Made by a program: the position numbers and the translations under genes. Under the pieces are notes generated by a model that saw nothing but the letters and a program-made list of their open reading frames with translations, was not told the DNA's origin and searched no databases. Source: Acutalibacteraceae bacterium (GTDB lineage Bacteria; Bacillota; Clostridia; Oscillospirales; Acutalibacteraceae). Taken from it: 64,000 nt of DNA. Positions within the stretch are counted from its first letter, which is position 1. Each line of letters starts with the position of its first letter. Where the stretch lies: positions 18,847 through 82,846 of the forward strand of contig JAZRKE010000010.1 of NCBI GenBank assembly GCA_045646145.1, in the 5' to 3' direction. Shown piece after piece: positions 40,481-55,294 of the stretch.

Positions 40481-40553
40481 TAGCTTTCCTCACTTTGTTA
40501 AAAATTGTTTATCTTATTATCCAATATTTTTTTAAAAAAGTCAATAAAAATAC

Positions 40554-40600
40554 TTGACAAATTAAAAATATTTGTTATAATAAAAACAGTAATCATTACT
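40554..40600 (+). promoter_or_regulatory. promoter with candidate Fur-family (PerR) operator
   Basis: TTGACA (40554-40559), 16-nt spacer, TATAAT (40576-40581), then the perfect 6-1-6 palindrome AGTAATcATTACT (40588-40600). Confidence 0.55.
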
Positions 40601-40617
40601 ACTTTTGAGGAAAGCCT

Positions 40618-41004
40618 ATGAGAAACTATTCAAAACAGCGTGAGGTGGTGCTAAAAGTATTATGCAGCACCGATACCCACCCAACAGTAAATTGGATATA
40701 CGAGCGCTGCCGTGAACAGCTGCCGCGCATTAGTCTCGGCACCGTCTACCGAAACCTGACCGAGCTTAAAAACGAGGGCAAAATAATTGAAATCGGTATG
40801 GGCGACGGCCTTCAGCACTTCGACGGTAATCCTGAAGCTCATCTGCATTTCAGTTGCAATAGGTGCGGCGGAATTTTTGACTGTATAAGTCCCGACGAAG
40901 AACTAAAAGCATTTATTGAAAAGGAACTCGGGTGTAAGGTTACTCATCAGAAATTGCTTTTTAGCGGAATATGTAAAAACTGTTCTGCTGAAGATATAAA
41001 TTGA
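40618..41004 (+). CDS. perR: Fur family transcriptional regulator (PerR-like)
   Basis: 128 aa, HPT...IY....ISLGTVYRNL wHTH, with CNRCGG and CKNC zinc sites. Directly upstream of rubrerythrin. Confidence 0.8.
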   Translation: MRNYSKQREVVLKVLCSTDTHPTVNWIYERCREQLPRISLGTVYRNLTELKNEGKIIEIGMGDGLQHFDGNPEAHLHFSCNRCGGIFDCISPDEELKAFIEKELGCKVTHQKLLFSGICKNCSAEDIN

Positions 41005-41031
41005 TTAAAATTAATTATGAGGTGTAAAATT

Positions 41032-41574
41032 ATGAAAAAATTTGTATGTACTATCTGCGGTTATACTCACGAAGGAAATTCTGCTCCCGATGCCTGCCCA
41101 CTCTGCAAGGCTCCGGCTTCTAAATTCCAAGAGCAGGCAGGCGAAAAGACCTGGGCTGCCGAGCATATTGTAGGCGTAGCTAAGGGTGTTGACGAGCGCA
41201 TTATTGAGGGGCTTCGCGAAAACTTCAACGGCGAATGCAGTGAAGTTGGTATGTATCTTGCTATGGCAAGGGTTGCTCACCGCGAGGGCTATCCCGAAAT
41301 TGGTCTTTACTGGGAAAAAGCCGCTTACGAGGAGGCTGAACATGCCGCTAAGTTTGCCGAGCTTTTAGGCGAGGTTTTAACCGATTCGACAAAGAAAAAC
41401 CTCGAGATGCGTGTTGACGCCGAGAACGGCGCTACAATGGGCAAATTCGAACTTGCAAAACTTGCAAAAGAATTAGGCCTTGATGCGATCCATGACACCG
41501 TTCACGAAATGGCACGTGATGAAGCAAGACATGGCAAGGCATTTGAGGGACTTCTCAACCGTTACTTCAAATAA
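41032..41574 (+). CDS. rbr: reverse rubrerythrin (N-terminal rubredoxin-like CxxC..CxxC, C-terminal ferritin-like diiron domain)
   Basis: [11 protein letters not shown]...CPLCKAP followed by E..E..H diiron helices ([10 protein letters not shown]; [11 protein letters not shown]). GAGGTG RBS before ATG 41032. Confidence 0.9.
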
Positions 41575-41577
41575 GCA
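41518..41577 (+). repeat. att-like repeat copy 1 (functional 3' end of rbr; attL)
   Basis: Encodes [18 protein letters not shown]. Shares the 15-nt core TACTTCAAATAAGCA (41563-41577) with the copies at 50167-50181 and 52312-52326. Confidence 0.8.
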
Positions 41578-41615
41578 AAAACCCTTGTAAATCAAGGCTT
41601 TTTCGGAAATTAACA

Positions 41616-41650
41616 AAGGCACAGGATTTCAGTCCTGTGCCTTGTTTTTT
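41616..41650 (+). terminator. intrinsic terminator downstream of rbr (element-borne)
   Basis: aaggcacagga-tttcag-tcctgtgcctt + gT6. Confidence 0.8.
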
Positions 41651-41838
41651 GTGTTTGGTGCGAGTGCGAGTGCGAGAAAATCGCACGAAAATCAAATATT
41701 TTAATGCCTTGGGCGAACGAAAGTGCGATTTTCAAAAATCATCCGATAAAATCCGATGAAATCAGCACAAAACTGAAGATGTACGAAAAAGTAAGAGACA
41801 GGACCCGAAAGGACCCTGTCTCTAAAAATTTGCTCATA

Positions 41839-42288
41839 TCAATTTTCGTTTAACTCGGCATTTCCGTCATCCTTAGCATAGAGATTCAGAGTGTTATAAT
41901 AGTTAATAATCATTCTGTGCTTGTTCTCATTGCCCTTGACAATGTACTTTGGATTGACTTGATATACTCCGCTATGGATTTTTCGCAGAAAATCATTTTT
42001 CAATAATGTTCTGAAAGCGGTAGCAACTGTTTTTTCAGAGATTCCAGTTTTCTTTGCAACCTCTTTGTATGTTCCGATGAATGTATTATCGCTCTGTTTG
42101 ATGTGTTGCATGATATACAAAACAACATCCAACTGCTTACTGTTTGAAATGATACCCATAATGGTTAAAATATCGCTCAGCCAGATTTTCCAGAAGTTCT
42201 GACTTGAAACCTCTTTGTCAATCACAAGGTCCATGACCTCGCCCGTCTCACGGTTAACTGCATATGCATCTTGATATTTTCGGCTCAT
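41839..42288 (-). CDS. repL: RepL-type plasmid replication/maintenance protein
   Basis: 149 aa. QNFWKIWLSDILTIMGIISNSKQLDVVLYIMQHI..SDNTFIGTYKEVAKKTGISEKTVATAFRTLLKNDFLRK..SGVYQVNPKYIVKG parallels pSN2 RepL (GNFVKAYIVQLISMLDMIGGKKLKIVNYILDN...TREIAKATGTSLQTV...) as I recall it. Confidence 0.75.
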   Translation of the reverse strand: MSRKYQDAYAVNRETGEVMDLVIDKEVSSQNFWKIWLSDILTIMGIISNSKQLDVVLYIMQHIKQSDNTFIGTYKEVAKKTGISEKTVATAFRTLLKNDFLRKIHSGVYQVNPKYIVKGNENKHRMIINYYNTLNLYAKDDGNAELNEN

Positions 42289-42895
42289 CCTCCTTTGTCC
42301 TCCTTTCCATTGTATTTATCGTGTGGTTTTGAACTGCTCCATGGTAAATATGATGGAAAGGTTTTTTATTTGAGTGAAAACAGGTAAAATTTTTGCCCCT
42401 AAACAAGTAAGATTTTACCTCAAGAGTGGTAATATTTTACCTGTTGCAAAAGTGCCAAAAATCACTGTACTATATGGGTTTTTCGGTGTTTTCGGAAGTT
42501 GCTCCCTCTCTTCTTATATTCAATACCGATATTTTATCTGTAACGTTCGGATTGATAAAAGAAAAAGCAAATGCCAAAGGTAACGGCGACTGGCATTTGC
42601 GAAAGAGCAGAGTTTGCAAAAATAGTTATGACGAAATTTTTATATTCGGCACCTGTTGCGCCGCTTCCTGGTACCATGCAGAATTTTCTGCTCGTGTATG
42701 TGGCGAGAAGATTCTAAGCATTCTGTGGGGTTTTTCTTTTCCACGAGTTGCCGGCGATACCGCCACAAGATGTTCCTGTGTGTTTTTTATTGCGGACCGT
42801 TCTGTAAAACGGTCCGTTTTAGTTTGTTGGTTATTTCGGCGGCAATCCAAAAAGAAAGAAAGGACCGAGGTTCGGTCCTTTCGTGTGGGAGTGTA

Positions 42896-43216
42896 TCATT
42901 TGTTGTCGATGTGGTTCAACAGCTCTCCGAGGCGGTCACGCTCTGCCACAAGATGTGTGTAGAGTGATTTTGGTTTGATTCTTGCACCGCCTGTCTCCGC
43001 TTGTTTAATGTGGTGGTCCAGTTCTTTATAGTGCTGTCTGGTTGCTTCAATGTCCAGTGTCAGAGATGTGGGTTTTGCCCTTTTTGGCATTGGGTATTTT
43101 TTTACAAGTACGGTCATAACCAACTGATTGACAGAAGTACCCTTTTCATCAGCAACCGTTTTCAGATGGTTAATGTATTCCTCTTCGCAGTAAATGCGAA
43201 AATCCTTTTTGCTCAT
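42896..43216 (-). CDS. hypothetical protein, possible ribbon-helix-helix DNA-binding protein
   Basis: 106 aa. N-terminus FRIYCEEEYINHLKTVADEKGTSVNQLVMTVL resembles a beta-strand/helix/helix CopG-Arc pattern. AGGAG RBS. Divergent from mob. Confidence 0.5.
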   Translation of the reverse strand: MSKKDFRIYCEEEYINHLKTVADEKGTSVNQLVMTVLVKKYPMPKRAKPTSLTLDIEATRQHYKELDHHIKQAETGGARIKPKSLYTHLVAERDRLGELLNHIDNK

Positions 43217-43801
43217 AAAATCGCTCCTTTCGTAATACCTAAGATTTGCCGTAACAGGTGCGACCTGTTGGCAAATGGGCGGTTTAGGGTTTTTATACCT
43301 AAACCGCCGCGAGATGGCATCAAGGCCGACTCGCTCAAAGCAAGTATGAGGGAATTGCCAATTTTTTTGGCAATGAACCGAATGCTTGCTTCAGTTCGTG
43401 TCCTATGCTGAGTTTAGGCATCAATGACTAAACGAGGACAGGACGCGAACCAATAAAAGAGACAGCAATACACCACCACGGCGAGGTGTATTACACTGTT
43501 TCTTTTGGACGGGGATTTTTAAGGGGCGAAGCACCTTAAACGGTTCCAAGGCAGCGCCTTGGCTCACTCATAACGGACGTTATGTGTAGTGAGTGCATAG
43601 AACATCATTTTTATGAGGTTAGTATCAATCATACTTATTTTGTCCGCAGACGAAATGAGGATGATTAGATACGGGTTGACGAATATTGCTCCAACACCGT
43701 CCGAGGTGTTGAGAGGAATGTTTGGCAACAACAAGAAGCAAAGCAAAACTTCACAAAGTTTTGTTTTGGTTCTGGCTCATGGAAAGGAGGTTATAGGCAT
43801 T

Positions 43802-44818
43802 ATGAGCACAGGAAACAAAGCAATTTTTCGTGGTGCAAAATTGAACAGAGGCCGTGGAAAAACTTCTGTCGGAAGTGCATGGAGGCATCAAGAATTCCAC
43901 GAAAAATCTGCCGACATTTCGCACCCAGAATTATCACATAGAAATGCCACGAAACGTTATATAGAGAGTTATGATTTACTCCGCAAGAAAATCAATCAAA
44001 TCATAACTGACCACAACAAGCGAGCAGACAAGCAACGAGCAGAACTTTTAGCAAAAGGCATCAAAAAGAATCTGCCAAGGCGATTGAGAAAAGATGCTGC
44101 AGTTGCCTGCGAATGTATCTTCACATTCAGTCCAGAGATGGCAAGCAAAATTCCCATCAAAGAATGGGTCCATGCAAACCAAGCATTCATCAGACAAGAG
44201 TTCACAAGCAAGGGAGCGACACCTGTACGAATAGACTTGCATATGGACGAATCCTGTCCACATTTGCACTTCATTTTTTTGCCAACCACCAATGATGGAA
44301 GACTATCAGCAAAGGAATTTTTAGGTGGTGCCGGAAACCTCAGTCAGATGCAAGACCGCTATGCAGAGGCAATGGAACAGTTTGGTTTAACTCGTGGATT
44401 CTCTCGCTATAACCAGTATCAAGCGGTTATGAATATGGCGGTCAAAAATGGTTATGAGCAAAGTTCTGAAGGTGTCCGCAAATTCTGCATAGACAATGAC
44501 CTGCCAATTCCAGAGCGACGCCGACACCAAAGCAAGCACCAATGGCTGGCAAAACTGGAGGACCATATCCACGATTTGCAAGCACAGAAAAAAGAGATTG
44601 AGAGACAAATAAAAATCGCCGAGGACAACCTCGACGAAGCATTGCAAGTCAATCTCCAAAGACAGCGCGACGAATACAAAGCACGATGTGAGCATTTAGA
44701 ATCATTCGTGCAATCAAAGGACATGAAACCGCTGTGGGATACCTGGAACTTGATGAACAAAGGCAAATCCCACCCAAAAGCAATGGATGAAGATGATTTA
44801 TTCAACTCCCTTGAATAA
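43802..44818 (+). CDS. mob: MobV-family relaxase (plasmid recombination enzyme Mob/Pre)
   Basis: DLHMDESCPHLHFIFLP (HxDE...PHxH) motif and a coiled-coil C-terminus. AAGGAGG RBS before ATG 43802; the ORF-track start is 189 nt upstream. Confidence 0.85.
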   Translation: MSTGNKAIFRGAKLNRGRGKTSVGSAWRHQEFHEKSADISHPELSHRNATKRYIESYDLLRKKINQIITDHNKRADKQRAELLAKGIKKNLPRRLRKDAAVACECIFTFSPEMASKIPIKEWVHANQAFIRQEFTSKGATPVRIDLHMDESCPHLHFIFLPTTNDGRLSAKEFLGGAGNLSQMQDRYAEAMEQFGLTRGFSRYNQYQAVMNMAVKNGYEQSSEGVRKFCIDNDLPIPERRRHQSKHQWLAKLEDHIHDLQAQKKEIERQIKIAEDNLDEALQVNLQRQRDEYKARCEHLESFVQSKDMKPLWDTWNLMNKGKSHPKAMDEDDLFNSLE

Positions 44819-44872
44819 ATGTCGCACTCCATCAAACTTAAGATACAAAACAAATTGCAAGGAGGTAAAAAC

Positions 44873-46186
44873 ATGGATAAAGAGACATTAAGCAACTATG
44901 GATGGATTGTGATATGTGTTTTGGTGTTAGCAGTAATGATTGCTCTTGCAACTCCGTTTGGAAATTTCATTTGCGATGCAATATGGAGTACGGCAAATGG
45001 TCTGTTTAATACAAACAACAATGCACTGGATAACACTCTCGAAGATTTGGGAGTTGTGCCAACACCAGAGCAGTTGCAGGCAAGATATAAATTTGAATAT
45101 TATAGCACTTTGAACGGTGCGGTTAATGATGTCAACAATGGCACAATCGGAACAAATGCAGATGCGAACAAAGAGGATGCTGTCGCAGGAATTTATACAA
45201 ATGCAGGTCAGACATATGTGGTTCTGTTGAAAGACACAACAGAGGCAACAGTAGTGCAACCATCCGTGGATATGACCATCAATTTGGGAGGACATACATT
45301 ATCGGCGAATGATGACTATGGCATCAAAGTCTTGGGTGGCAATGTGAAAATTGATGGACGATTAACTGGAAGTTCCATTGAAATTTCTCGCTCTACTGGT
45401 AATTATGCGATGGCAATTTGGATTGAAAGTTCCGCTAATACTATTGTAGATGGCGGTATATATATCGGAGAATATATTGGTTCTAATATAAATCTCGCTA
45501 TCTATAATAGAGGTACGGCAACTTTTTCTAATTGCGACATTGTGGGAATATCTTCCGATGGGACCGCTGCCGGTGTGCAAAATAATGGTACGGCAACATT
45601 CGATAACTGCAACATTAAAGGTTATGCTAACTACACATACGGCGATGTTTCCTACTATGGCTCAAGTTCCATAGGCATTGTAAATCAAAATGTTCTAACC
45701 CTCAACGATTGCTATGCTATGGGAACACATTCTGGTATTACAAACCGTGGTGCTTTATATATCAACGGCGGTATCTATGAGGGGTATGGTCATGGTGGTA
45801 TTTATTTCAGCAATATCAATGCACCAGCATATGTTTGCAATGCAACAATCAGAGAATGTCAAATGCCAGATGGATACACCGTAACAGCAGGAGATAATAA
45901 TGCAGGTTTTTATATTGGTGGTTCTGCAGGAAAAGATAATATTGTTGTTTACATGGATAACTGCGACATTTATGGCAGTGTACAACCAATTGTCCTCCGT
46001 GGCTCTGATGGTGAACAAAACAACTCTCTATATATCAGTAATTCCAGAATCAATACTGAACGAAACATTAGAATCGACAATAATACCCACAGACTATATA
46101 TCGGAGTGGGTAACAATTTCACTGTCGATAATACAACCCTACCAAGTGCTGTTGTCACAACCAACGAAACATACACTCAGAAATAA
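44873..46186 (+). CDS. membrane-anchored protein with predicted right-handed beta-helix repeats, function unknown
   Basis: MDKETLSNYGWIVICVLVLAVMIALATPFG TM anchor, then repeated G..I/V.N.G.(A/L)T..NC.I motifs (NRGTATFSNCDIVG, NNGTATFDNCNIKG, NQNVLTLNDCYAMG, NRGALYINGGIYEG). GGAGG RBS. Confidence 0.65.
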   Translation: MDKETLSNYGWIVICVLVLAVMIALATPFGNFICDAIWSTANGLFNTNNNALDNTLEDLGVVPTPEQLQARYKFEYYSTLNGAVNDVNNGTIGTNADANKEDAVAGIYTNAGQTYVVLLKDTTEATVVQPSVDMTINLGGHTLSANDDYGIKVLGGNVKIDGRLTGSSIEISRSTGNYAMAIWIESSANTIVDGGIYIGEYIGSNINLAIYNRGTATFSNCDIVGISSDGTAAGVQNNGTATFDNCNIKGYANYTYGDVSYYGSSSIGIVNQNVLTLNDCYAMGTHSGITNRGALYINGGIYEGYGHGGIYFSNINAPAYVCNATIRECQMPDGYTVTAGDNNAGFYIGGSAGKDNIVVYMDNCDIYGSVQPIVLRGSDGEQNNSLYISNSRINTERNIRIDNNTHRLYIGVGNNFTVDNTTLPSAVVTTNETYTQK

Positions 46187-46190
46187 CATA

Positions 46191-46224
46191 AAACGGTATG
46201 AGGAAATTTCCTCATACCGTTTTC
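46191..46224. terminator. perfect palindromic bidirectional terminator
   Basis: aaaacggtatgagg-aaattt-cctcataccgtttt between convergent genes. Confidence 0.8.
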
Positions 46225-46230
46225 TTTCGT

Positions 46231-47319
46231 TTATTCTTCATCATCAGCATCCATGTGCATTTCCAGTCTGTAATAAATGTCAATGTCACGGATAATATCA
46301 TCAATATCAGAATCGCCCAGTTCAGAAGTCCACTCTTTCAATTCGTTGATAGTGATAACTTCCTCAATAGCCTTTTCGTATCGCTCACGAATAACTCTCA
46401 TGCCGTTTGCACGTTCTTCGATGTATGCTTCAAGGTCTCTGAGAACTGCCCGTTTACTGCTGTTGGTCTTGATAACAAAGGAAATCGGGAAGTGCATAAC
46501 CTTGTCAATATCAAGCAGATATTTATCATAACTGCTGACCTCGGTAACTTGGAAGAATCTGCCCACAGGTCGCATTACAAAGTCAATGCCACCATCATTT
46601 GCATTAGTTCTGCCAGTTTTGAACAGCTGCAGTTCTTCCTCACGGATTGTATCAAGGGTATAGCCAAAATAAACCTTGATGTTTTTGTAATGGTTTCTCA
46701 GAATGGCATAACTGATAATTTCAAAGATTCGTGCCTCTGCATCCTCGTTCAAAAGGGCGGTAATCTGATTCTTTTTCTCTGTATAATCAGTCAGTTCCTG
46801 CATCTCCTGCAAAATCTGAATCAGTGCATGGTCCTTTGCAATCAGCAAATCAATGTATTTTTCAATTACCTTAACGGCAGTTTTGCTGATGTCAGTCTGA
46901 CCAACATACAGGTAATCAATATGTAACAGATACTTGCCGTTATCAATGATAATCAAATCGTTGGTGATGGTCGGGAATTTATTCTTAAATTCGCCATTCA
47001 CACGAGAATTGAGGGCATGGTTCTGCAACTTGCTACCGCCGTACAGACTGCGGTAGTGGTTAAACAGTTTCATATAATCATAACCGCCGAAATTTCTGTA
47101 TCTGTCCGGCTGGTTATAGAAATCTGCTTGGTAAAAATGCAGAATGGAGTAAATAGCATAGATGTTTGCAAGACTTCTTCTTGTCTTGCTATTGCCATGT
47201 ACTGCCTTCATCTTTTTGTCCAGATACTGCAAAAGCAAACTGGAATCATATATTTGTTGGAAGTTGTCGGGATGCTCCGCTTGGAGTATCTCTTTCACAA
47301 ATTCTTCGGTAATTCTCAT
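46231..47319 (-). CDS. putative restriction endonuclease partner of the adjacent methyltransferase (family not recognised)
   Basis: 362 aa, begins 1 nt after the methylase stop. The C-terminal half has EARIFEIISYAIL...TGRTNANDGGIDFVMRPVGRFFQVTE, loosely Mrr-cat/PD-(D/E)xK-like. Confidence 0.5.
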   Translation of the reverse strand: MRITEEFVKEILQAEHPDNFQQIYDSSLLLQYLDKKMKAVHGNSKTRRSLANIYAIYSILHFYQADFYNQPDRYRNFGGYDYMKLFNHYRSLYGGSKLQNHALNSRVNGEFKNKFPTITNDLIIIDNGKYLLHIDYLYVGQTDISKTAVKVIEKYIDLLIAKDHALIQILQEMQELTDYTEKKNQITALLNEDAEARIFEIISYAILRNHYKNIKVYFGYTLDTIREEELQLFKTGRTNANDGGIDFVMRPVGRFFQVTEVSSYDKYLLDIDKVMHFPISFVIKTNSSKRAVLRDLEAYIEERANGMRVIRERYEKAIEEVITINELKEWTSELGDSDIDDIIRDIDIYYRLEMHMDADDEE

Positions 47320-47320
47320 A

Positions 47321-48280
47321 TCAATCCCTCACGTACTTGGATTTTGCGGAGGTCTTTCGTACCTTCTCTTTTACAAGTGCCTTTCCGTTGTATTCTGTGG
47401 CAATGCCAGTTCTTCTGAGGCCAATTTCAAAGTATTCCTCATTCATATCAATACCAACACCAACTCTGCCCAAACGGACAGCAACGGCAGATGTTGTAAA
47501 GGACCCAGAGAATGGGTCAAGCACTACATCGCCGGGATTGGAAGATGCTTTGATGATTCGCTCCAAAAGTGCCTCGGGTTTTTGCGTCGGGTGGTTTTCG
47601 TATTCCTCCATCTTGAAACGAACACGACTGAAATCCCACACATTCCCTGGAACCTTTTCGGTATTGTAAGGCTGCGGAGGGTCTTTGCGATAGTCAATCA
47701 ATTTTCTGGTGGCGCCAGTCTTTGCCTCTACCATAATGTCTTGATGGTTAAAGGTGTATTTTGCCTTTGCACTCTTGTTAATCATCAAAATGGGTTCATA
47801 CAGAGAACCATACATTTTCTTAGATTGAACACCGGAACTGTCATAGGTCCAGACGATTCTGCAAAGAACATTATATTTTTGAGTTGCATATATGTCGAGA
47901 TATGGCATGTGCTGAGTGGCGGTCATAAAATACATCGAACCGTCATCGGTGAGGATTCGCATACATTCATCAATCCACTCTTTGCACCAGTTAATATATG
48001 CCTCAACGGTTTCCCATTTATCTTGGTTGTTTCCAAAGTCTTTGCCTATGTTGTAGGGTGCATCTGCAAAAATCAGTTTTACGGAATTGCTTTTTATTTT
48101 TCTGAGAACTTCAAGGGAATCTCCGAGGATTGCCATTGAATTGTTGCTGTGCATTTCAGTAATACCATCTGTATCAACAAACATATCTTCAAACGGATAT
48201 GCAGGAACGTCTGCAGGAACCACAACAGGGGCATCGACCTTGGTTTCTTCTATGAAATCAAAACTCAGTTGTTGGTCCAT
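47321..48280 (-). CDS. beta-class N6-adenine/N4-cytosine DNA methyltransferase (PF01555-like)
   Basis: Motif IV variant IFADAPYN precedes the SAM motif VLDPFSGSFTTS. Start at the ATG preceded by GGGAGG (MDQQLSFDF...). Confidence 0.85.
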   Translation of the reverse strand: MDQQLSFDFIEETKVDAPVVVPADVPAYPFEDMFVDTDGITEMHSNNSMAILGDSLEVLRKIKSNSVKLIFADAPYNIGKDFGNNQDKWETVEAYINWCKEWIDECMRILTDDGSMYFMTATQHMPYLDIYATQKYNVLCRIVWTYDSSGVQSKKMYGSLYEPILMINKSAKAKYTFNHQDIMVEAKTGATRKLIDYRKDPPQPYNTEKVPGNVWDFSRVRFKMEEYENHPTQKPEALLERIIKASSNPGDVVLDPFSGSFTTSAVAVRLGRVGVGIDMNEEYFEIGLRRTGIATEYNGKALVKEKVRKTSAKSKYVRD

Positions 48281-48660
48281 GACACTGTTCCTCCCTTGGG
48301 TAAACACAATAATTTACATTATAGTATAGCACAAAGAATCGAAAAAAGCCATAGGTCCCAGAAAAATGTCGCAAAGTATTTACAAAATTTCCTCATAAAC
48401 ATTTCTGTATATAATACCGATAACACGGAGAGCGATTCTGCGGTTTGCAATCGTGGAATTATCGGAGGACCGCCCCAACGATATTATATACAGTAAATTA
48501 GTGATATTATATACAGAAACTTTTTAGCATTTCCGCTGTACGGCGGTTATTTTTATTTATGAGAGAATTTTGTAATTCTGGACCCTGCCTCTTCCAGGCG
48601 GAACCGGTTCAGAATCATCTGCAGATAAAATCAAAACGGACCCTTTTCGGGTCCGTTCTG

Positions 48661-49992
48661 TTATTTGCGGTATTTGGTTCTTCTGCCCTTGCTGTCGATG
48701 GTCTCCACGAAGTCTGCCGGAGGTTCATCCAGAATCGGAAGTGCGGAATGGTATGTAAACATTCCATCAAGGATGTGGGCAGTTCTCTTTTTCAGAGGTT
48801 CATTGTCGGTATTGATGTAGTATCTTCTGGTGGTGTCAATCTTCTTATGTCCCATCATGGTCATGAGCATTTGCAGATTGACATTGCTCGCAGCACAAGT
48901 GCTTGCATAGGTGTGACGGAGGTTGTGATACTTAAATTCGATGCCGAGTTCTGCCTTGATTTTCTTGCTCCAGTACTTGGTGGAATTGTTGGTCAGCAAT
49001 TCGCCATTGCTCTTGCGATTGATGAAATCGCCCCCGACAATCCATTCTCCACGGACTTCATCATATACTTGCTCGGTATTCCTGTAACCTTGTCCGAGTT
49101 TGCTTTGCTCTTTTCTCTGTTGCTCAAAGTAACCGTCCAGATAGTCCTGCAGGAAAGCAGGCATGATGACTTGGCGAATACTCGTTAAGGTCTTTACTGC
49201 ACAGAGTTTCCAGATGCCGTCCTCATAATGCAACTGTCTGTTGACGGTAATTGTACCCTCTTCCCAGTTGATGTTTTCCCATCTGAGGGCGAAACATTCG
49301 GAGATACGGAGACCGCAATACAGACCGAGGTAAAAGGCGGTCAGCAAATTTCCATCCTCGCTTTTGAAAATCTTTTCCATTGCAAGGAGGTGTTCATCAT
49401 CGTAGACCTCTGCACCCTCTTCAGATTCTTCAAAATCTGCCTGTGTCATTTTGGGCATTGTCAACCGTTTTCCCTTAGTGACAAACATACGGAGATAACG
49501 GTCGGGGTTAATGACTTCCATACGGTCTGCATGACCGAACAGCAGATAGAAGAATTTCAAAAATCCCTCGGTGTACTTGTAGGAGTATTCCTTGTATAAG
49601 TCACTGAGAAATGTCTGCAATTCGATGATGGTAATGGAATCAATTTCTCTGTCACCGAATTTCGGTCCTACATGGTTTTTCCACATGGAGTTCTGCTTGG
49701 TAATGGTTGCAACTGCTCTGTCCTGTCCTTCGGTGGAGAGATAGTTGTCATAAACGTCCTGCAAGGTCGTTTTATGCCGTTTAGGGGCATTTTCCGTTGG
49801 ATTGGCACGGATGCTTGTCTCATGTGCCTTTTTCGCCTCGTAGGCGGCTCTGGCGGTCAGAAAAGCATTGCCGTTATCATCTTTCTTTCGCTCGGTGTTG
49901 ACCACTCTACCATCGGGCAATTTCATCTTGATACGGTATTTCCAACCACCCTCTGGCAGTTGAGAAACGCCTGGATATTTGTTTTTTGCCAT
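48661..49992 (-). CDS. int: tyrosine-type site-specific recombinase/integrase
   Basis: MAKNKYPGVSQLPEGGWKYRIKM... (Arm-binding-like N-terminus). C-terminal HNLRHTYAS...GHKKIDTTRRYY catalytic signature. GGGAGG RBS before ATG 49992. Terminator hairpin at 48635-48657. Confidence 0.92.
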   Translation of the reverse strand: MAKNKYPGVSQLPEGGWKYRIKMKLPDGRVVNTERKKDDNGNAFLTARAAYEAKKAHETSIRANPTENAPKRHKTTLQDVYDNYLSTEGQDRAVATITKQNSMWKNHVGPKFGDREIDSITIIELQTFLSDLYKEYSYKYTEGFLKFFYLLFGHADRMEVINPDRYLRMFVTKGKRLTMPKMTQADFEESEEGAEVYDDEHLLAMEKIFKSEDGNLLTAFYLGLYCGLRISECFALRWENINWEEGTITVNRQLHYEDGIWKLCAVKTLTSIRQVIMPAFLQDYLDGYFEQQRKEQSKLGQGYRNTEQVYDEVRGEWIVGGDFINRKSNGELLTNNSTKYWSKKIKAELGIEFKYHNLRHTYASTCAASNVNLQMLMTMMGHKKIDTTRRYYINTDNEPLKKRTAHILDGMFTYHSALPILDEPPADFVETIDSKGRRTKYRK

Positions 49993-50121
49993 CTGTACAT
50001 CCTCCCATTTGTTGTTCCCTCGCATATATGATAGCAAAATGTTAGGGCTATAGCAAGTGCGAATTTGTGAACAAACGGCAAAAAATGCTTGAAATTCAAG
50101 GGTTTTCAGCCATAGTCTCAA

Positions 50122-50245
50122 GATGAGGCTCGCCACGGCAAAGCTTTCGAAGGTTTACTTAACAGATACTTCAAATAAGCAGAAACCGCATAAAATAAGG
50201 GTTTTCAGGACATTCACCGTTTTGGTGGATGTCCTTTCCTTTTTC
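50122..50245 (+). repeat. att-like repeat copy 2 (displaced surrogate rbr 3' end + downstream terminator; attR of the IME)
   Basis: Encodes [18 protein letters not shown] with 15 synonymous differences from copy 1. 50126-50199 is identical to 52271-52344. Confidence 0.8.
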
Positions 50246-50489
50246 TGCATATCTTTTTTATTGTGCTTTACTTTTCAAACTATGTGTGGTAAAATAACTA
50301 CATACCACACTACATTTGAATAATCGATAAGTGTTTATATCCAATTAGGGAGAATACTACCTTGGTAAAAGGTGTTCTCTCTTTCTCCCTTTGCGGATAT
50401 TTATCGGTGTAGTGTGGTAACGAAACCGAGGGAAACACTTTTTCGGCACATCCTTCGGGGTGTGCTTTTTTAATTAAGGGGTAAAATCT

Positions 50490-50708
50490 ATGAGAAAAAA
50501 GCAGATATTTGATGTAACCGGCACACCATTAACACCATCAAGACAAGGTCGCAAATGTCTGGGGAATGGTGAGCATCCAGAATATGAAATTTGTTGTGAT
50601 GAATGCGATTATTATTTGTATTGTTTTCCACAGTATAATTGGCAGTCAAAGATAAATAGATTAAAAAAGAGATTTTATAAGTTATTAGAGAGAATTCTTA
50701 TGCGATAA
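50490..50708 (+). CDS. hypothetical small Cys-rich protein
   Basis: 72 aa, ...RKCLGNGEHPEYEICCDECDYYLYCFP... AAGGGG RBS. Confidence 0.5.
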   Translation: MRKKQIFDVTGTPLTPSRQGRKCLGNGEHPEYEICCDECDYYLYCFPQYNWQSKINRLKKRFYKLLERILMR

Positions 50709-50812
50709 TTTATTTATAACATTTTTATATGTGCAACAAACCGACTTTCAGCGTTATTGGTTGTGTAATTTTTGAAAATGTCTTTTGAACATTTTTCAAT
50801 ATGAGCCACATC

Positions 50813-50866
50813 ACGGGAAAGCTTTTGAGGGTCTGCTCAACAGATATTTTAAATAATCAACAACTA
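50813..50866 (+). repeat. att-like repeat copy 3 (degenerate rbr 3' end)
   Basis: Translates to [17 protein letters not shown]. The core has diverged (tattttaaataatca). Confidence 0.65.
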
Positions 50867-51059
50867 ATGGCCCCCTTGTGCAAAGGGGGCTGTCATTTTT
50901 TTAAATAACTGGGGGATTGTTCAGATTATTATTTACAATCCCTCCGTCAAAATCCACGATTTTGCCACCTCCCTTTACACAAGGGAGGCTTTTTTATTGC
51001 AAAACGCGCAAAAATATGCTATCATAACGGTAGCACATCTTTTGTTTTGAGGTGATAGA

Positions 51060-51656
51060 ATGAAAAAATATTACTGCCCTTACTGCGGCGAACTAACTTT
51101 TTCAAGTTATCAAAAATATACGAGTAATCACTGTGGTGTTGGTGAGTCTGCAAGGAAAGCAATGTTTTTCACCTGTCGCAACTGTCTTAATGAAATCGAA
51201 CGAAAAAGCACACCGCAAGGAAAGAAAATTTTAAATTATATTATACCGATTTATTTGATTTTGGCATTGGCATTTTTGGTTTTCGTTGTTGTTGAAATCT
51301 ATACATTGATGTTTATAATGTTAGCTTTTATTATTTTATTTTCTTTTATTTTAACCTTCGTTTTAGGGAAAACCTGTATTCTTTCACGAATTGATGGTAA
51401 TTACAACGATACATTATTTCCAATAGAAATTGATTCTAAAGAAATAAGTGTTGGTGGTGTATATTTATTAAAACCCACAGGCAGTGAATTAAATAAAGTA
51501 TCTGTTTGTAGGGAATATATTGCTGAGATAACAAAGGATAATTTAAATCAATATTTTGTTAGAGTAATCAAACCTGTTGACTGCACATTTGAACCTCTGG
51601 AATTTTCAATTTATGATGATAAGAAATGTATTGGAACAGGCACCCTTTTGGTGTGA
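51060..51656 (+). CDS. hypothetical membrane protein with N-terminal zinc ribbon
   Basis: YYCPYCGE...CRNCLNE, two TM helices and a C-terminal ~90-aa domain. GAGGTGA RBS. Confidence 0.6.
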   Translation: MKKYYCPYCGELTFSSYQKYTSNHCGVGESARKAMFFTCRNCLNEIERKSTPQGKKILNYIIPIYLILALAFLVFVVVEIYTLMFIMLAFIILFSFILTFVLGKTCILSRIDGNYNDTLFPIEIDSKEISVGGVYLLKPTGSELNKVSVCREYIAEITKDNLNQYFVRVIKPVDCTFEPLEFSIYDDKKCIGTGTLLV

Positions 51657-51758
51657 TAAAACGGTATCTTAAAACAGTAACGCATCTTTTTGTAAGATTT
51701 ACGATTTTTTGTTTACATATATAACAGCGTTGAAAATTTTTTGTTTTGGGGTGATTTA

Positions 51759-52193
51759 ATGAAGAAAGCAAAAAAGTATATTTATCCTTTTATTATTTCA
51801 ATAGTATTTTTCATATTTCTTTTTATTTCAGTGGCTATTATAAACAACTTTTATGGTCACCGCGAGGGATATGGCGGACTTGGTATTGCCCTATTGCTTA
51901 TAATACTATGGATATTAGTAGCGATACCTGTTTATTGTTTTAAATATATTAAACTTATTTATGAAGAAAAGCGGAAGTCCTTATTCATCATTTACAATTC
52001 ACTTGTGGTTTCCCTTTGTTATACAGGACCTTTTTTCAAGCCTGCCGTATCTAGTAGTGATGTTGACATAATCATTAAGATTACTCTCGCCCTTTTCGGT
52101 TGGGTGGCAATTTGCACATATATTTCATATCTTATACGAATAAATACTACTAAAGAATTGTCTGAAAACAATTTAAACGAAACTCAAAGATAG
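51759..52193 (+). CDS. hypothetical polytopic membrane protein (paralog of 53069 gene)
   Basis: 144 aa from MKKAKKYIYPF. Shares INNF...GYGGLG(I/L)A.L.I.LW.L..IP.YC..Y..LI......F.IYN.LV....YT.PFF with the 53069 product. Confidence 0.6.
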   Translation: MKKAKKYIYPFIISIVFFIFLFISVAIINNFYGHREGYGGLGIALLLIILWILVAIPVYCFKYIKLIYEEKRKSLFIIYNSLVVSLCYTGPFFKPAVSSSDVDIIIKITLALFGWVAICTYISYLIRINTTKELSENNLNETQR

Positions 52194-52266
52194 TGTGACA
52201 AAAGTGTGATTTTAAAAACACATGCCATAAACCCTCGATTTCAAGCAGTTTTTGAGCATTTTTCAA

Positions 52267-52390
52267 GATAAGGCTCGCCACGGCAAAGCTTTCGAAGGTT
52301 TACTTAACAGATACTTCAAATAAGCAGAAACCGCATAAAATAAGAATTTTCGGGACATTTACCGCTTTGGTGGGTGTCCTTTGTTTTTTC
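52267..52390 (+). repeat. att-like repeat copy 4 (rbr 3' end remnant + terminator)
   Basis: Encodes [18 protein letters not shown]. Has the identical 15-nt core at 52312-52326, followed by the hairpin gggacatttacc..ggtgggtgtcct. Confidence 0.8.
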
Positions 52391-52492
52391 CAGAACATTA
52401 ACAAAACGGCTTGAACAAAAAAGAGGGTTATGCTATACTGTACACATAATATAGTGATTTTAGCAAATCCAGACTCTAAGGGGGAACCTTAA

Positions 52493-53059
52493 TTGAAAAA
52501 GTTATTAGCAATCATATTCGTATTGGTCCTTGTACTCGGCTTAGTGGGCTGTGTAGACACTTCAAAAGATAACTCTGGCAAAACCGATGAAACTGCCGCC
52601 GCAACCCCCAATACTACAACATCACAAACACAAAATACACCCGAGATAATAAATCCCACTGACGTGGAAATTCCTGACTCGTACGATGAACAATGGGCTC
52701 TCCTATACAAAGTGTTTGTTCCTATTGCAGGCGAAAAGGTTGAACGCGATTGGAAGACCGTTGACGCATTCATCAATACCGCTGGGTATAAGTGTATAGT
52801 AGATGAAGGAATCTTTAGTATTAGCGACCCATATCGCGAAGGAAGTTACATCAGCGGTATGCTAACTACTAAAAATGGTTATATAGAAATTTGCGATATA
52901 TATTACAACATTCAAATAGCAGGAAAGAATTATAAATCCGGTGTTGATTGGTATAAGAATACTCGATATTTAATCGAAGTAAACGAATTTTCCCAAACTT
53001 CCACCGAGGTAGCCTCTTTATCGAAGGTTGTAGAGTACATTAGAGGCACTGAAAAATAA
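52493..53059 (+). CDS. hypothetical lipoprotein
   Basis: TTG start after AAGGGGGA. MKKLLAIIFVLVLVLGLVGC lipobox. Confidence 0.6.
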   Translation: MKKLLAIIFVLVLVLGLVGCVDTSKDNSGKTDETAAATPNTTTSQTQNTPEIINPTDVEIPDSYDEQWALLYKVFVPIAGEKVERDWKTVDAFINTAGYKCIVDEGIFSISDPYREGSYISGMLTTKNGYIEICDIYYNIQIAGKNYKSGVDWYKNTRYLIEVNEFSQTSTEVASLSKVVEYIRGTEK

Positions 53060-53068
53060 TGTGATTTT

Positions 53069-53535
53069 ATGAAAAATTTTTTTACATTTAGCAGCCCTAT
53101 TTTATTTTCCGCGTTTTCTTATTTGGCATATATTATTATGGTTTTCATTATAAACAATTTTGTGGAATTTAAAGATTACGGGGGCCTTGGACTTGCGTTT
53201 TTAATTATATTTCTGTGGGTATTGATTATTATCCCGATTTATTGTTATTTATATTATAGGCTTATAAGAAACAATCGGTTAAAGTTTATATTCGCTATTT
53301 ATAATCCCTTAGTTATAGCATCTTCTTATACATTGCCTTTTTTCTACAAGGTGAGTATTTTATTATCATTTTCCAGATTGCTATGGCTCTTTTAGTTTGG
53401 TGGTTGATTTGGTGTCTTTTACCATTATTTATAAAACCAAAACAAAATAATGAGGATATCATAAAACAAGAACCTGCCGATTTTTTGTTGCAAAGCAAGA
53501 AGAAAAATATAATTGCAATTTGTTTTACGTGCTAA
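53069..53535 (+). pseudogene. frameshifted paralog of the 51759 membrane-protein gene
   Basis: Frame 0 stops at 53395. The -1/+2 frame, open from 53305 to 53535, continues the paralog alignment (IIIFQIAMALLVWWLIWC vs IIIKITLALFGWVAIC). A T6 run at 53338-53343 lies at the switch point. Confidence 0.55.
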
Positions 53536-53810
53536 AAACTCTATTCCTTGCAGCTATGTTTACGGGAACACTTTTTAATTTCAAATATATAAAGTTACTT
53601 AAATGCGGGGCGCTAGGCCTTGCCGTACTGTCGGTCGGTTTGCTTATATTTGAACTGATAAATGTCGGTGGGACTGTGTATCATCAAATCGATTCAAACG
53701 GGACACTTGCTATAAACACCTCCATGGTTATACATTTTTTCTTGCGAGCATTGTATTTTGTTGGAATTTCTATTCTGGCATCAAACAAAAGAAGTTCCGA
53801 ATCAGTTTGA
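53520..53810 (+). CDS. hypothetical small membrane protein (start uncertain)
   Basis: Hydrophobic 96-aa ORF. No convincing RBS at TTG 53520 or ATG 53556. Confidence 0.35.
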   Translation: MFYVLKTLFLAAMFTGTLFNFKYIKLLKCGALGLAVLSVGLLIFELINVGGTVYHQIDSNGTLAINTSMVIHFFLRALYFVGISILASNKRSSESV

Positions 53811-53894
53811 TAAAACCCCGATTTCACTGACTAATTATAAAGAGGTGCATAACAGCACCTGTTTTTTGCTATAATTATGTAGGGAGGAATAATT

Positions 53895-54176
53895 ATGAAG
53901 AAAATTTTAGCAATCATTTTATCGGCTATTTTTATTTTTGGGCTTTGCGCCTGTGCTAACCGACCGGCACTCAGTGCCGATGATGCTCTCAATATAGCCT
54001 TAAATCAGGCAGGGGTTACAAGAGATAGCATTCGTAACCTTGAAAACCGGCTTGAGTGGGATGACGGCATTCAGGTTTACGAAATTGATTTTGATTCGGG
54101 CGCTACCGAATATTCCTTTGATGTAAACGCTCAGACAGGCGCCATAGTTGAGCGCGACCGAGGTATAATAGATTAA
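53895..54176 (+). CDS. PepSY domain lipoprotein
   Basis: MKKILAIILSAIFIFGLCAC lipobox. PepSY-like ...SADDALNIALNQAGV......E.D.GIQVYEIDF.....EYSFDVNAQTGAIV. GGGAGG RBS. Confidence 0.8.
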   Translation: MKKILAIILSAIFIFGLCACANRPALSADDALNIALNQAGVTRDSIRNLENRLEWDDGIQVYEIDFDSGATEYSFDVNAQTGAIVERDRGIID

Positions 54177-54238
54177 TTCTCACTAAAAATCTTTTTTTAA
54201 CGGAGACACTTTATAAAAAAGTTGCCTCCGTTTTTTCT

Positions 54239-55294
54239 TTACTTTATAAATTTTGCTAATGCATCGCCTATCTTCTCGGCCATTCGGTAAAAACCTAAAT
54301 CATTAGGGTGAGTGCCGTCAACGGTGCAGTGGTTCATAAAATCTCCTGAACAAAGTTCCGGAGTCTCTACAAGTGCAACATTTTTATCCCCCTGTGATAG
54401 CGCGTAATTATATGTATCTCTTTTCACCTGGGCTCTGCCGCCGCCATTATCATTGGGATTAAAGGTTGGGTAACCTACTAAAATAATCGGAATATCGGTG
54501 TGTGCCGCGCGAACGGTTTTATAACCCTCAATATAACGTTCCTTAACCTCTTCATAAGAAGAGTTCCAATCATAATCATACACAAATGCGCTCATATCGA
54601 GTGTGCTTATATAATCGAACATAGCCTGTTCGCCCCTAGCGTTACCCGAAAAACCGAGGTTAATAAAATCGGCATCAAAGCGCTCGCTAATATAGCCTTG
54701 ATAGCAGTTGCTGGGGCGCGACGCGCATCCGCCTTGGGTTATGGATGAACCGTAATAAACTATCGGCTTCTTTATTTTATATTCTCCGCCGTGCTCAAGT
54801 TTTGCATCTTTGCTGATACCGATATATACATTTTTTACATCATTGTAAAGCGGCATTGTAAAAATATAATCGGTCATTCTGCCCATAGCATTAACCTTAC
54901 GAACATAGCCCTTATTGTCGTCCATATTAGGCATCATTAGGCCATGAAAAATAAATTTACCGTCTTCATAACGGTGAATATCAAAGCCAGCTATTCCTGC
55001 CTCTGGCATATGTGACATTAATGTTAAATTATCGTATTCCACCTTAAGTGCAATATAGCGTGAATCGGTTTTAAAACGTATTCTGCCGCCTGCGGTAAAT
55101 AGGTAATTATGGGCAACACCTTTGCTTACACTTTCCGCCACCTCTTTTGGCATACGTCGGAAAAGTCCGTCCTCTTTCGGCCTATAAAGTCCGTAAATCT
55201 CGAACGGCTCCTCCATTACGGAATACCATTTAATATCAGGTTCATCTATATCCGTCTTTATCTCGAAATTTTTATCAATTTTTGCGATATCCAT
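54239..55294 (-). CDS. SGNH/GDSL hydrolase family protein
   Basis: Block I YYGSSITQGG and block V DGTHPNDLG, with an N-terminal beta-sandwich-like extension. Confidence 0.8.
   Translation of the reverse strand: MDIAKIDKNFEIKTDIDEPDIKWYSVMEEPFEIYGLYRPKEDGLFRRMPKEVAESVSKGVAHNYLFTAGGRIRFKTDSRYIALKVEYDNLTLMSHMPEAGIAGFDIHRYEDGKFIFHGLMMPNMDDNKGYVRKVNAMGRMTDYIFTMPLYNDVKNVYIGISKDAKLEHGGEYKIKKPIVYYGSSITQGGCASRPSNCYQGYISERFDADFINLGFSGNARGEQAMFDYISTLDMSAFVYDYDWNSSYEEVKERYIEGYKTVRAAHTDIPIILVGYPTFNPNDNGGGRAQVKRDTYNYALSQGDKNVALVETPELCSGDFMNHCTVDGTHPNDLGFYRMAEKIGDALAKFIK

Follow-up and report, generated by a model that had tools for sequence, protein, structure and literature searches.

An integrative mobilizable element very probably inserted in the 3' end of the rubrerythrin gene of an Acutalibacteraceae bacterium

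The window analysed here, a 64,000-nt stretch of DNA from an Acutalibacteraceae bacterium, holds the end of rbr, a gene of oxidative-stress defence coding for a reverse rubrerythrin, more than once, which raises the question of how the copies arose and which of them now ends the gene. The 60-nt direct repeats at 41518–41577 and 50122–50181, offset by 8,604 nt, encode the same peptide and differ at 15 positions, all of them synonymous (12 at codon position 3 and 3 at position 1, in Arg and Leu codons). This repeat, reported in an earlier sequence-only reading, is confirmed; when 15 random substitutions were placed in the 57 coding nt, the peptide was kept in 0 of 300,000 trials. We conclude that an integrative mobilizable element (IME) of ~8.6 kb has very probably been inserted in the 3' end of rbr by a tyrosine integrase, with the crossover at GAYGARG and with the left copy as a surrogate gene end. 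Replacement of a gene end by an inserted element is a well-known strategy, and the unusual part is the target gene. The earlier reading knew of no description of rubrerythrin as an att target; we likewise found no report in the literature, and rbr is missing from the target table of PMC5704250.

Seven ORFs, all intact, lie between the att sites:

41839–42288, minus strand: repL, plasmid-type replication protein (PF05732, 3e-28; 98.8 bits against a cut-off of 20.3)
42896–43216, minus strand: 106-aa ORF, oriented divergently to mobV; perhaps an RHH-type protein with an accessory, excision or regulatory role
43802–44818, plus strand: mobV relaxase, 338 aa (PF01076, 3e-18; NCBIfam MobV equivalog NF041497, 107.2 bits against a cut-off of 100)
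44819–46186, plus strand: cargo, a strand-rich repeat protein that is secreted or anchored in the membrane
46231–47319, minus strand: cargo, putative type II restriction endonuclease, 362 aa
47321–48307, minus strand: cargo, adenine-specific DNA methyltransferase (PF01555, 3e-56; NF008572, 446 bits against a cut-off of 292)
48661–49992, minus strand: tyrosine integrase of 443 aa, extended at the N-terminus and containing a core-binding domain of SAM-like type (PF00589, 4e-18; PF14659)

The integrase ORF adjoins the right rbr-end copy, as had been noticed before. Aligned to the Tn1549 integrase (6en0), it shows GLRISE, KT..S.R (KTLTSIR), HNLRHT, GH (GHKK) and RRYY, and the catalytic residue set R-K-HxxR-H/W-Y is intact. 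Integrases of Tn1549 and Tn916 (PDB 6en0, 6emz) are among the closest solved structures, the best E-value being that of the XerC-like recombinase 4a8e; the similarity to Tn1549 Int is weak (E about 5e-5), and the alignment covers the catalytic domain, in which Arg, Lys, His-x-x-Arg, His and Tyr are conserved. Tn916 and Tn1549 select their targets with low specificity and bring no surrogate gene end; the integrase of the window, by contrast, is strictly site-specific.

The profile matches bear out the RepL and MobV proteins assigned earlier. RepL is 42–45% aa identical to its counterparts on small plasmids of Bacillus and Clostridium, and its presence beside an integrase, also read correctly before, agrees with the description of plasmid-type Rep proteins as common in IMEs (PMC5704250). 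The real start of mobV is the ATG at 43802, after AGGAGG, plasmid MobV alignments beginning at aa 62–70 of the long ORF. The translation contains HMDESCPHLH (HxDE...PHxH motif), and a 338-aa orthologue is found in L086, a locus from an unrelated host. The 106-aa gene, previously called RHH-like, is also kept in L086; the ORF is present as described, and its profile matches are all sub-threshold (RHH_4, E=0.25; NikA-like, 0.04). For the proposed methylase/nuclease pair, the methylase holds; its co-oriented neighbour is a putative nuclease: a protein of L. plantarum plasmids that is annotated as a restriction endonuclease is 52% identical to it, type II restriction enzymes of small plasmids are 36% identical, and no HMM or PDB match was obtained. 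The gene of the strand-rich protein carries internal 36-nt repeats (family D4) and its product has no Pfam match; a low-confidence model (pLDDT 45) predicts an N-terminal TM helix followed by ~35 short strands, with which the beta-helix fold suggested earlier would be compatible, though not proven. T4SS or T4CP domains and conjugation genes were found by profile models in 0 of the 7 ORFs. Because the insertion has its own integrase and MobV relaxase without conjugation machinery, and att direct repeats at a specific target, it is classed as an IME, in agreement with the sequence-only reading.

The position of strand exchange can be mapped from the features at the two ends of the element:

41032–41517, plus strand: host-derived body of rbr, upstream of the crossover (PF21349, PF02915)
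41518–41524: attL crossover region, GATGAAG, corresponding in register to the sharp boundary between element and host at attR
41525–41574, plus strand: element-borne surrogate rbr 3' end, now the Rbr C-terminus; identity to the attL of L086 from 41544
41578–41652, plus strand: start of the P' arm, with the palindromic motif AAAACCCTTGTAAATCAAGGCTTTTT (41578–41603) and an intrinsic terminator (41616–41643) followed by a T run
41658–41728: cluster of GTGCGA repeats, candidate arm-type integrase sites (plus strand at 41658, 41664, 41670 and 41723; minus strand at 41681)
49993–50121: P arm, with a promoter-like site (50056–50028), GTGCGA at 50057, a palindrome (50081–50106) and ATAGTCTCAA (50112–50121)
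50122–50128: attR crossover region, GATGAGG, where similarity to L086, L081 and L097 stops and host-specific sequence begins
50129–50245, plus strand: earlier rbr 3' end, now displaced, running to the stop at 50178 and followed by a separate terminator (50207–50235) and T run

Strand exchange took place at GAYGARG (41518–41524 / 50122–50128) and not at the 15-nt core at the stop codon, because related elements keep their sequence up to ATAGTCTCAAGA(Y)GA and L086 has no stop-codon core shared by its two ends. The motif ATAGTCTCAAGA(Y)GA next to int is common to eight junctions, which belong to two subfamilies of integrase (identity at least 90% or 74%), ATAGTCTCAA is invariant across them, and they continue into host-specific rbr ends with different amino acids and flanks. 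The P arm of the window is identical to that of L086 at 199 of 200 positions up to GATGA, after which the matches per 20 nt fall to 16, 14, 11 and 6. In L086, attL and attR have no common core at the stop codon (CACTTCAAATAAGCA versus TATTTTGGTTAATAT). Since the junction maps to these heptamers, the element extends from about 41523 to 50126. GAYGARG covers the codons for Asp, Glu and Ala in the second EXXH diiron-ligand motif, the least variable DNA of the gene tail, and GAYGARGC is invariant, wobble positions aside, across 85 rbr copies. The two heptamers of the window differ at one position, a point against this mapping; the single mismatch recalls the tolerance of heterology by Tn916 and Tn1549 integrases. 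Islands and phages in tRNA genes (Campbell/Williams rule) cross over at the 5' edge of the attP/attB block and supply the 3' part of their target. The same is seen here; unlike in those elements, the target is protein-coding and the intact gene is not adjacent to int, which is located at the opposite end.

Both arms contain further conserved elements. Six of the 21 GTGCGA copies in the 64 kb fall in the two att-flanking regions, with the same layout in L086, and in the family of 74%-identical integrases the corresponding positions read GTGGGAT. A promoter scan yielded the promoter-like site of int. The start of the P' arm is conserved in L086, L081 and L096, and its terminator now ends rbr. 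From 41544 rightwards the surrogate is identical to the attL of L086 and runs unbroken into element sequence; the stretch 41544–41559 (GGGACTTCTCAACCGT) matches L086 at 16 of 16 positions and has an exact match in 0 of 85 rbr copies. This part of the left copy is element-type. The left copy is translated as the Rbr C-terminus, so the earlier view that a surrogate end keeps the target intact is upheld. The right copy is an earlier gene end, adjoining int, that was pushed 8.6 kb downstream together with its terminator. Its sequence is colinear with that of L101, which is free of the element, across the rbr end and its flank, and also with that of L008, in accordance with the earlier proposal that the displaced copy had served as a real rbr terminus. 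L101 shares the DUF421-rex-perR-rbr synteny of the window and is empty-site-like: directly after its rbr come the sequences that the window has beyond 50122, and it has no integrase. Beyond this empty-site-like arrangement, a same-species empty site was not found, the nearest relatives having ~81% nt identity in rbr, and no circular junction was seen; both points count against the insertion model.

It had been proposed that recombination took place at the 15-nt core TACTTCAAATAAGCA. The element would then span 41578–50166, the left copy would be native, and the right 45 nt would be a non-translated pseudo-end within the P arm. Apart from the 15-mer, the two copies in the window share no identity longer than 5 nt, but the same element in L086 recombined without such a common core, and the mapped junction, GATGA(A/G)G, lies ~45 nt upstream. 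The 45 nt beside int, moreover, differ between elements in which the preceding 200 nt are 99.5% identical and run on into host-specific flanks, the left copy is element-type at 41544–41559, and a never-translated pseudo-end would lose its pure synonymy. Recombination within the stop-codon identity is thus extremely improbable. The predicted circles differ as well: that account joins 50166 to 41578 (the GGCTCGCCACGG block), and the best explanation joins 50126 to 41523. Far less improbable, though still unlikely, is a crossover that is not fixed and falls at several points along or beyond the 57-nt homology, by secondary integrase sites or short-homology recombination. Different points for integration and excision would swap part of the rbr-end cassette, the event in the window still lying at the 5' edge. 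Such a process would fit the variable 5' part of the surrogate among close elements with both arms conserved: in its 5' 30 nt, 9 of 31 positions differ between the window and L086, above the level of the flanks (5–7%), and in the 74% family two elements with an identical integrase carry surrogates that differ at ~11 of 57 positions, synonymously. This variation between close elements is unexplained by a single fixed crossover. The attL/attR identity of 11 nt in L086 and 34 nt in L081, ending exactly after CTCAA, and the native-like rbr end combined with an element-like downstream flank in L008 point the same way. However, the 5' part of the window attL matches the attR of L086 at 21 of 25 positions, a background level reached by 32% of rbr copies, fixed cut positions are normal for tyrosine recombinases, and modular recombination between elements could yield the same pattern.

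The insertion could also be an immobile relic, a RepL/MobV plasmid trapped for example by Campbell-type homologous recombination through a cloned rbr fragment, with an incidental or inactive integrase. This we consider quite improbable. No excision product was observed, no nt-level relative was found among 72,556 plasmids (PLSDB), and decayed neighbours, described below, indicate that elements at the rbr site do degenerate. Against these observations, RecA-type integration would need a higher identity than 75% over 57 nt, not a base of the junction differs across at least seven host contexts, and all ORFs are intact with the integrase catalytic residues present. In L086, Int, MobV, the 106-aa ORF and RepL are 92–94% nt identical to the window, the cargo differs, and the element again lies beside perR-rbr, although rbr itself is just 75% nt identical; a 92–99.5% identical copy in a host with so different an rbr implies recent horizontal transfer.

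The sequence-only reading assumed a single insertion with two rbr-end copies. This has to be revised, since the rbr 3' end is present in four copies (stops at 41574, 50178, 50856 and 52323), each with its own terminator, and the array includes two more att-flanked segments that have no integrase:

50122–50799: integrase-less att-flanked segment of 0.68 kb, containing a structured leader plus an ORF for a Cys-rich product of 72 aa
50800–52266: integrase-less att-flanked segment of 1.47 kb, with genes for two small membrane proteins and, at its right end, P-arm-like sequence
52267–52390, plus strand: fourth rbr-end copy, stop at 52323, terminator at 52352–52380; 93% identical to 50118–50245

The first segment is bounded by copies 2 and 3, and its content is colinear with L101. 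The second begins with the degenerate copy 3 (50800–50856) and its terminator (50867–50893), and its P arm resembles that of a relic at L088 9397. Both are bounded by rbr-end copies with P-arm-like left flanks and contain no int and no mob, which would fit a CIME (a cis-mobilizable remnant that is att-flanked and integrase-less); however, part of their content is colinear with the native flank in L101. The segment after copy 2 resembles that native flank, yet two further rbr-end copies come after it. It is noted that the empty site suggested earlier, rbr followed by 52327–52390, hints that the fourth copy had already been noticed. As in the ICESt1/ICESt3–CIME accretion of Streptococcus thermophilus and the SGI1 tandem arrays (cited in PMC5704250; PMC2297512), where successive integrations at one gene end give att arrays of an intact element and integrase-less remnants, the downstream segments may represent tandem accretion with decayed elements at a site used repeatedly. 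The repeats here are diverged synonymous gene ends of 57–128 nt, in contrast to the near-identical cores of those systems.

The closest parallels are streptococcal IMEs at the 3' ends of housekeeping genes, IMESag-rpsI and IME_..._rpmE/rpmG/rplL (Coluzzi 2017, PMC5357655; Guedon 2017, PMC5704250). Like the present element, they are small, have a site-specific tyrosine integrase and encode a relaxase themselves, which in IMESag-rpsI is a MobV; they carry a replication gene of plasmid or RCR type and lack a mating pore; they use the 3' end of a conserved gene, which stays intact, and often stand in tandem with decayed elements. The present element differs in its target, rbr, in its hosts, Oscillospirales-type gut and rumen Clostridia, and in that its mobility is a prediction. 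Its Rep is RepL, where related elements have Rep_OBD and a helicase instead. Integrases 36–100% identical to that of the window are located at rbr ends in many Clostridia, and those of 36–55% identity abut rbr-end copies in L010, L039, L087 and L081 (int2).

In the preferred reading, an IME inserted by its integrase at GAYGARG, the element brings its own version of the final 17 rbr codons together with stop codon and terminator, and therefore the host gene now ends in element DNA. The dyad formed by ATAGTCTCAA and GAYGARGCT may be the core site, and the GTGCGA repeats of both arms may be arm-type sites for the N-terminal region of the integrase. After excision, RepL would maintain the circle, MobV would nick an oriT upstream of mobV, and transfer would proceed via a mating pore that a conjugative helper supplies, with the R-M pair and the surface protein as probable cargo. 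No oriT was identified other than as candidate inverted repeats (43518–43587), nor was an excisionase or a helper element for the IME. The predicted excision and helper mobilization receive only indirect support, from the 92–99.5% identical copies in hosts with 75%-identical rbr. It is conceivable, if doubtful, that the rbr-end block is an exchangeable cassette, element and hosts repeatedly swapping the last ~17 rbr codons, sometimes with the terminator. If true, such exchange would keep the surrogate a patchwork of genuine, selected gene ends, would explain the purely synonymous copies, and would enable a single integrase lineage to move from genus to genus.

The 3' end of the reverse-rubrerythrin gene rbr is repeated in the window. 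Its last 60 nt (41518-41577, copy 1) recur at 50122-50181 (copy 2) with 15 mismatches and an identical encoded peptide. Twelve of the differences affect the third base of a codon and three the first base of an Arg or Leu codon, and TACTTCAAATAAGCA is the sole identical run longer than 5 nt between the two copies. When 15 random substitutions were placed per trial, the peptide was kept in 0 of 300,000 trials. The repeat with purely synonymous differences, as described in the sequence-only reading, is therefore real and far beyond chance. The two copies counted in that reading both exist, but the count was incomplete, as the rbr 3' end is present four times in the window, with stop codons at 41574, 50178, 50856 and 52323. 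Copies 2 and 4 are one base apart and share 128 nt, terminator included (50118-50245 / 52263-52390, 93% identical). Copy 3 is more diverged; from HGKAF... onwards its differences are synonymous only.

Features of the rbr ends and of the element between copies 1 and 2 (L086 is a related locus in another genome)
41032-41574, + strand: rbr
41616-41643, 50207-50235, 50867-50893 and 52352-52380: intrinsic terminators, one after each rbr-end copy
41839-42288, - strand: RepL (PF05732, 3e-28; 42-45% identity to RepL of small Bacillus/Clostridium plasmids)
42896-43216, - strand: 106-aa ORF, sub-threshold RHH/NikA-like matches only, conserved in L086
43802-44818, + strand: MobV relaxase (PF01076; NCBIfam equivalog, 107 bits against a cut-off of 100)
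44819-46186, + strand: 455-aa cargo protein, no family match
46231-47319, - strand: 362-aa ORF, putative restriction endonuclease (52% identity to an annotated restriction endonuclease)
47321-48307, - strand: adenine methyltransferase (NF008572, 446 bits)
48661-49992, - strand: tyrosine integrase (PF00589 and PF14659)

The three profiles for which searches had been proposed, PF00589, PF01076 and PF05732, are all matched, in the integrase, MobV and RepL, respectively. The integrase catalytic residues are present, with the Arg, Lys, His-x-x-Arg, His and Tyr positions aligning with those of Tn1549 Int. No coupling protein or T4SS gene is found among the genes between copies 1 and 2. With its own integrase and MobV relaxase, the element is thus an IME by the definition in PMC5704250, as had been claimed. 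We infer that it can excise, replicate and be transferred. The MobV start was re-assigned using plasmid alignments and a 338-aa orthologue. The 362-aa ORF has no match in Pfam, NCBIfam or PDB. For the 455-aa protein, the single-sequence structure prediction (pLDDT 45), with an N-terminal helix and many short strands, was too poor for a fold search; its 75-nt-spaced tandem repeats (NxGTATF.NC.I, 45506-45616) fit a repetitive (solenoid-like) fold rich in strands. Between the methylase and integrase genes, a 350-nt gap carries dense inverted and direct repeats (48380-48575), including GATATTATATACAG twice and repeat arms at 48397-48423 / 48498-48524, and may be a regulatory region. No plasmid matches the whole element by megablast, and no exact-protein record was found for the window's Rbr (with two start codons) or integrase.

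The ends of the element can be compared with those of relatives on other contigs, defined as members of the integrase's 90%-identity cluster. In L086 (GCA_054266115.1), the gene order is Int - DUF4097 - LRR_5 - MobV - 106 aa - RepL and the element adjoins rbr-perR. The element backbones of L086 and the window are 92-94% identical, while the rbr of the L086 genome is only 75% identical to the window's at the nucleotide level. At the integrase-side end (P arm), 199 of 200 nt are identical up to and including ...CCATAGTCTCAAGATGA; past this junction the matches per 20 nt fall through 16, 14, 11 and 6, and L086 continues into an rbr end (...KRYFG*) and a flank unlike those of the window. At the RepL-side end (P' arm), window and L086 are the same from GGGACTTCTCAACCGT (41544) across the stop codon into the element. 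The 16-mer at 41544 is present in the L086 element and has an exact match in 0 of 85 rbr copies (80 species); it is therefore element DNA and does not belong to the window host's gene.

The sequence-only reading had placed the crossover in a 15-nt core at the stop codon, in which case the circle would carry ...AACAGATACTTCAAATAAGCAAAAACCCTTG..., with 50166/50181 joined to 41578. This placement is contradicted by L086, whose attL and attR have no common stop-codon core (CACTTCAAATAAGCA vs TATTTTGGTTAATAT), and by the element-type sequence from 41544; the 15-nt stretch is simply where the codon choice of two gene ends coincides. In a second subfamily, whose integrase is 74% identical to the window's, one and the same protein (P0125) is found in four or more host contexts (L088, L093, L094 and L090). 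All of them read ...ATAGTCTCAAGA(T/C)GAGGC and then pass into host-specific ends, including one with a TAG stop and HGVALKGLLERYFK*. Considering the junctions of L086 and of the P0125 subfamily, we place the exchange region, on sequence comparison, at GAYGARG (41518-41524 / 50122-50128). The left copy would then be the element's surrogate, an element-borne rbr end that is now translated, and the right copy the terminus predating the element. Because direct repeats flank the element, the unit is 8,604 nt under either register. With exchange at GAYGARG, the circular junction would read ...GGGTTTTCAGCCATAGTCTCAAGATGA(A/G)GCAAGACATGGCAAGGCATTTGAGG..., 50126 being joined to 41523, and the empty site would read ...CACGAAATGGCACGTGATGA(A/G)GCTCGCCACGGCAAAGC.... 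It should be mentioned that in L090 (~9847-9900, and contig end 16572-16622) this int-side junction (…ATAGTCTCAAGATGAGGCTCG) runs into the interior of a DNA polymerase III alpha-like gene and not into an rbr end; the cause may be insertion at a secondary site, where GATGAGGCTCG occurs by chance, or a chimeric assembly.

GAYGARGC codes for the Asp-Glu-Ala of DEARH, the second EXXH diiron-ligand motif in rubrerythrin. Of its eight bases, only the two at wobble positions vary across 85 rbr copies. Elements with the same integrase protein differ at these wobble positions in their attR sites, as a heterology-tolerant overlap region would predict. Together, the P-arm sequence and the target make up an imperfect dyad, AGTCTCA-AGA-TGAGGCT. 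There are five copies of the hexamer GTGCGA at 41658-41728 and one at 50057, in the same layout as in L086; in the 74%-identity family, GTGGGAT takes the equivalent positions (L088rc 5737-5802 and 11371). This co-variation with integrase subfamily suggests that the repeats are arm-type integrase binding sites. A palindromic motif, AAAACCnTTGnAAATnCAAGGnTTTT, found after the stop codon (41578-41603) and again before the core (50081-50106), looks like an accessory site.

Integrases adjoining a second rbr end are also present in other genomes: L010 (37% identical, 7.2-kb element; a third copy is present as well), L039 (36% identical, 9.5 kb, ~140-nt repeat including the terminator) and L087 (55% identical, 5.4 kb). 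In L081 two elements lie in tandem; one integrase is at least 90% identical to the window's and the other 36%. The rbr 3' end is thus a recurrent landing site of a broad integrase clade (36-100% identical), whose hosts are gut and rumen Clostridia. Backbones in the family are built of modules (RepL, or Rep_OBD plus a helicase), and cargo differs between elements, comprising R-M systems, TetR, acetyltransferase and surface proteins. An integrase-based metagenome scan recovered a single locus, L087, and a metagenome scan for the right-end pattern had 0 matches; two viral-contig matches to the junction pattern lie inside a phage tail-fibre gene and were dismissed as chance. No recognizable rbr fragment follows the integrase in L048. 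A second rbr-like copy in L022 was rejected as an att site, being a complete paralogue (3108-3659) 0.7 kb downstream of the first and the product of tandem gene duplication.

Among closely related elements, the arms are less variable than the surrogate's coding portion. Window and L086 have 9 mismatches in 41515-41545 and 1 in the next 90 nt. L088 and L090 have identical integrases and P arms, and P' is identical from +20 onwards; their surrogates differ at ~11 of 57 positions, all synonymous. The attL/attR identity ends exactly at CTCAA|, after 11 nt in L086 and after 34 nt in L081. There may be several points at which crossovers resolve, with element and host swapping parts of the rbr-end cassette, or elements may recombine with each other in arrays. 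A criss-cross resemblance of the window attL to the L086 attR was rejected as evidence for a mid-block crossover, as it is within background and is reached by 32% of rbr copies.

The flanks of the element form a redox locus, DUF421-rex-perR-rbr, of an Oscillospirales/Acutalibacteraceae-like Clostridium, with best Rbr matches at 92-94% amino acid and ~81% nucleotide identity. L101 (GCA_054288045.1) has the order DUF4363-DUF421-rex-perR-rbr, an Rbr 94% identical in amino acids to the window's and no integrase within 10 kb. Its flank, structured leader and Cys-rich ORF come directly after rbr and correspond to the content after 50122 in the window. L101 is the closest available empty-site comparator, though from another species; L008 resembles its arrangement. 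P0139, the best-scoring Rbr homologue, was rejected as a close strain, since it is an internally duplicated Rbr from a distant organism. The L100 rbr (888-1607, 239 aa) has a ~59-residue internal duplication in the ferritin-like domain, which accounts for the misleading top score of the homologue search.

The content after copy 2 is colinear with the native L101 flank, yet two more rbr-end copies follow. The earlier picture of a single insertion gives way to a larger array, in which the element is accompanied by two further integrase-less segments.

Segments bounded by copies 2-4, without int or mob (CIME-like)
50122-50799
50800-52266

Both segments end P-arm-like (...TTTTCAA|(G/T)AT...), and the arm preceding copy 4 resembles a relic in L088. 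IME accretion with decayed CIMEs has been described (PMC5704250), and the two segments appear to match it. Separately, a conserved structured leader (50300-50480, + strand) precedes a 72-aa Cys-rich ORF (50490-50708). Its features are an extended -10 promoter, a long-range helix, an inner stem showing compensatory changes, a conserved loop CCTTGGTAAAAGGTG and, just ahead of the ORF, a terminator. Homologues occur in L101, L008 and L087; in L101 the leader is likewise followed by this ORF, along with PepSY and a radical-SAM gene. Rfam has no match to this leader, nor any within 40500-54500; the leader may represent a riboswitch or attenuator of an undescribed kind. The window also holds membrane-protein genes at 51060-52193, which are paralogous to a gene at 53069-53395 and have homologues in L036, immediately downstream of rbr; the small paralogues 51741-52193 / 53069-53395 lie on opposite sides of copy 4. 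A promoter/leader, 'tgctatcata..ggtagcacatcttttgttttgaggtgataga-ATG', occurs twice (~51000-51068 and 51729-51767) and is native just downstream of rbr in L003, L004, L005, L009, L036 and L088.

The target table of a 2017 review lists guaA, rplL, rpmE, rpmG, rpsI, tRNA genes and others (PMC5704250), and no paper in the full-text library searched links rubrerythrin with an att site or IME. A tyrosine integrase at a gene 3' end, a surrogate end, MobV, a plasmid-type Rep and tandem accretion are already described for IMEs; the mechanism itself is textbook and holds little surprise for the specialist. The interest lies in a new target gene, a site precisely defined at the EXXH codons, a family widely distributed among gut and rumen Clostridia, and cassette exchange as a possibility. 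For annotation, the Rbr C-terminus in such genomes is encoded by foreign DNA. Gut and rumen Clostridia have few genetic tools and a poorly described mobilome. With the GAYGARG junction, an attB/attP pair becomes testable and might be used in vectors for site-specific integration in these bacteria, and rubrerythrin, an oxidative-stress gene of anaerobes, joins the gene ends that serve as landing sites of mobile elements.
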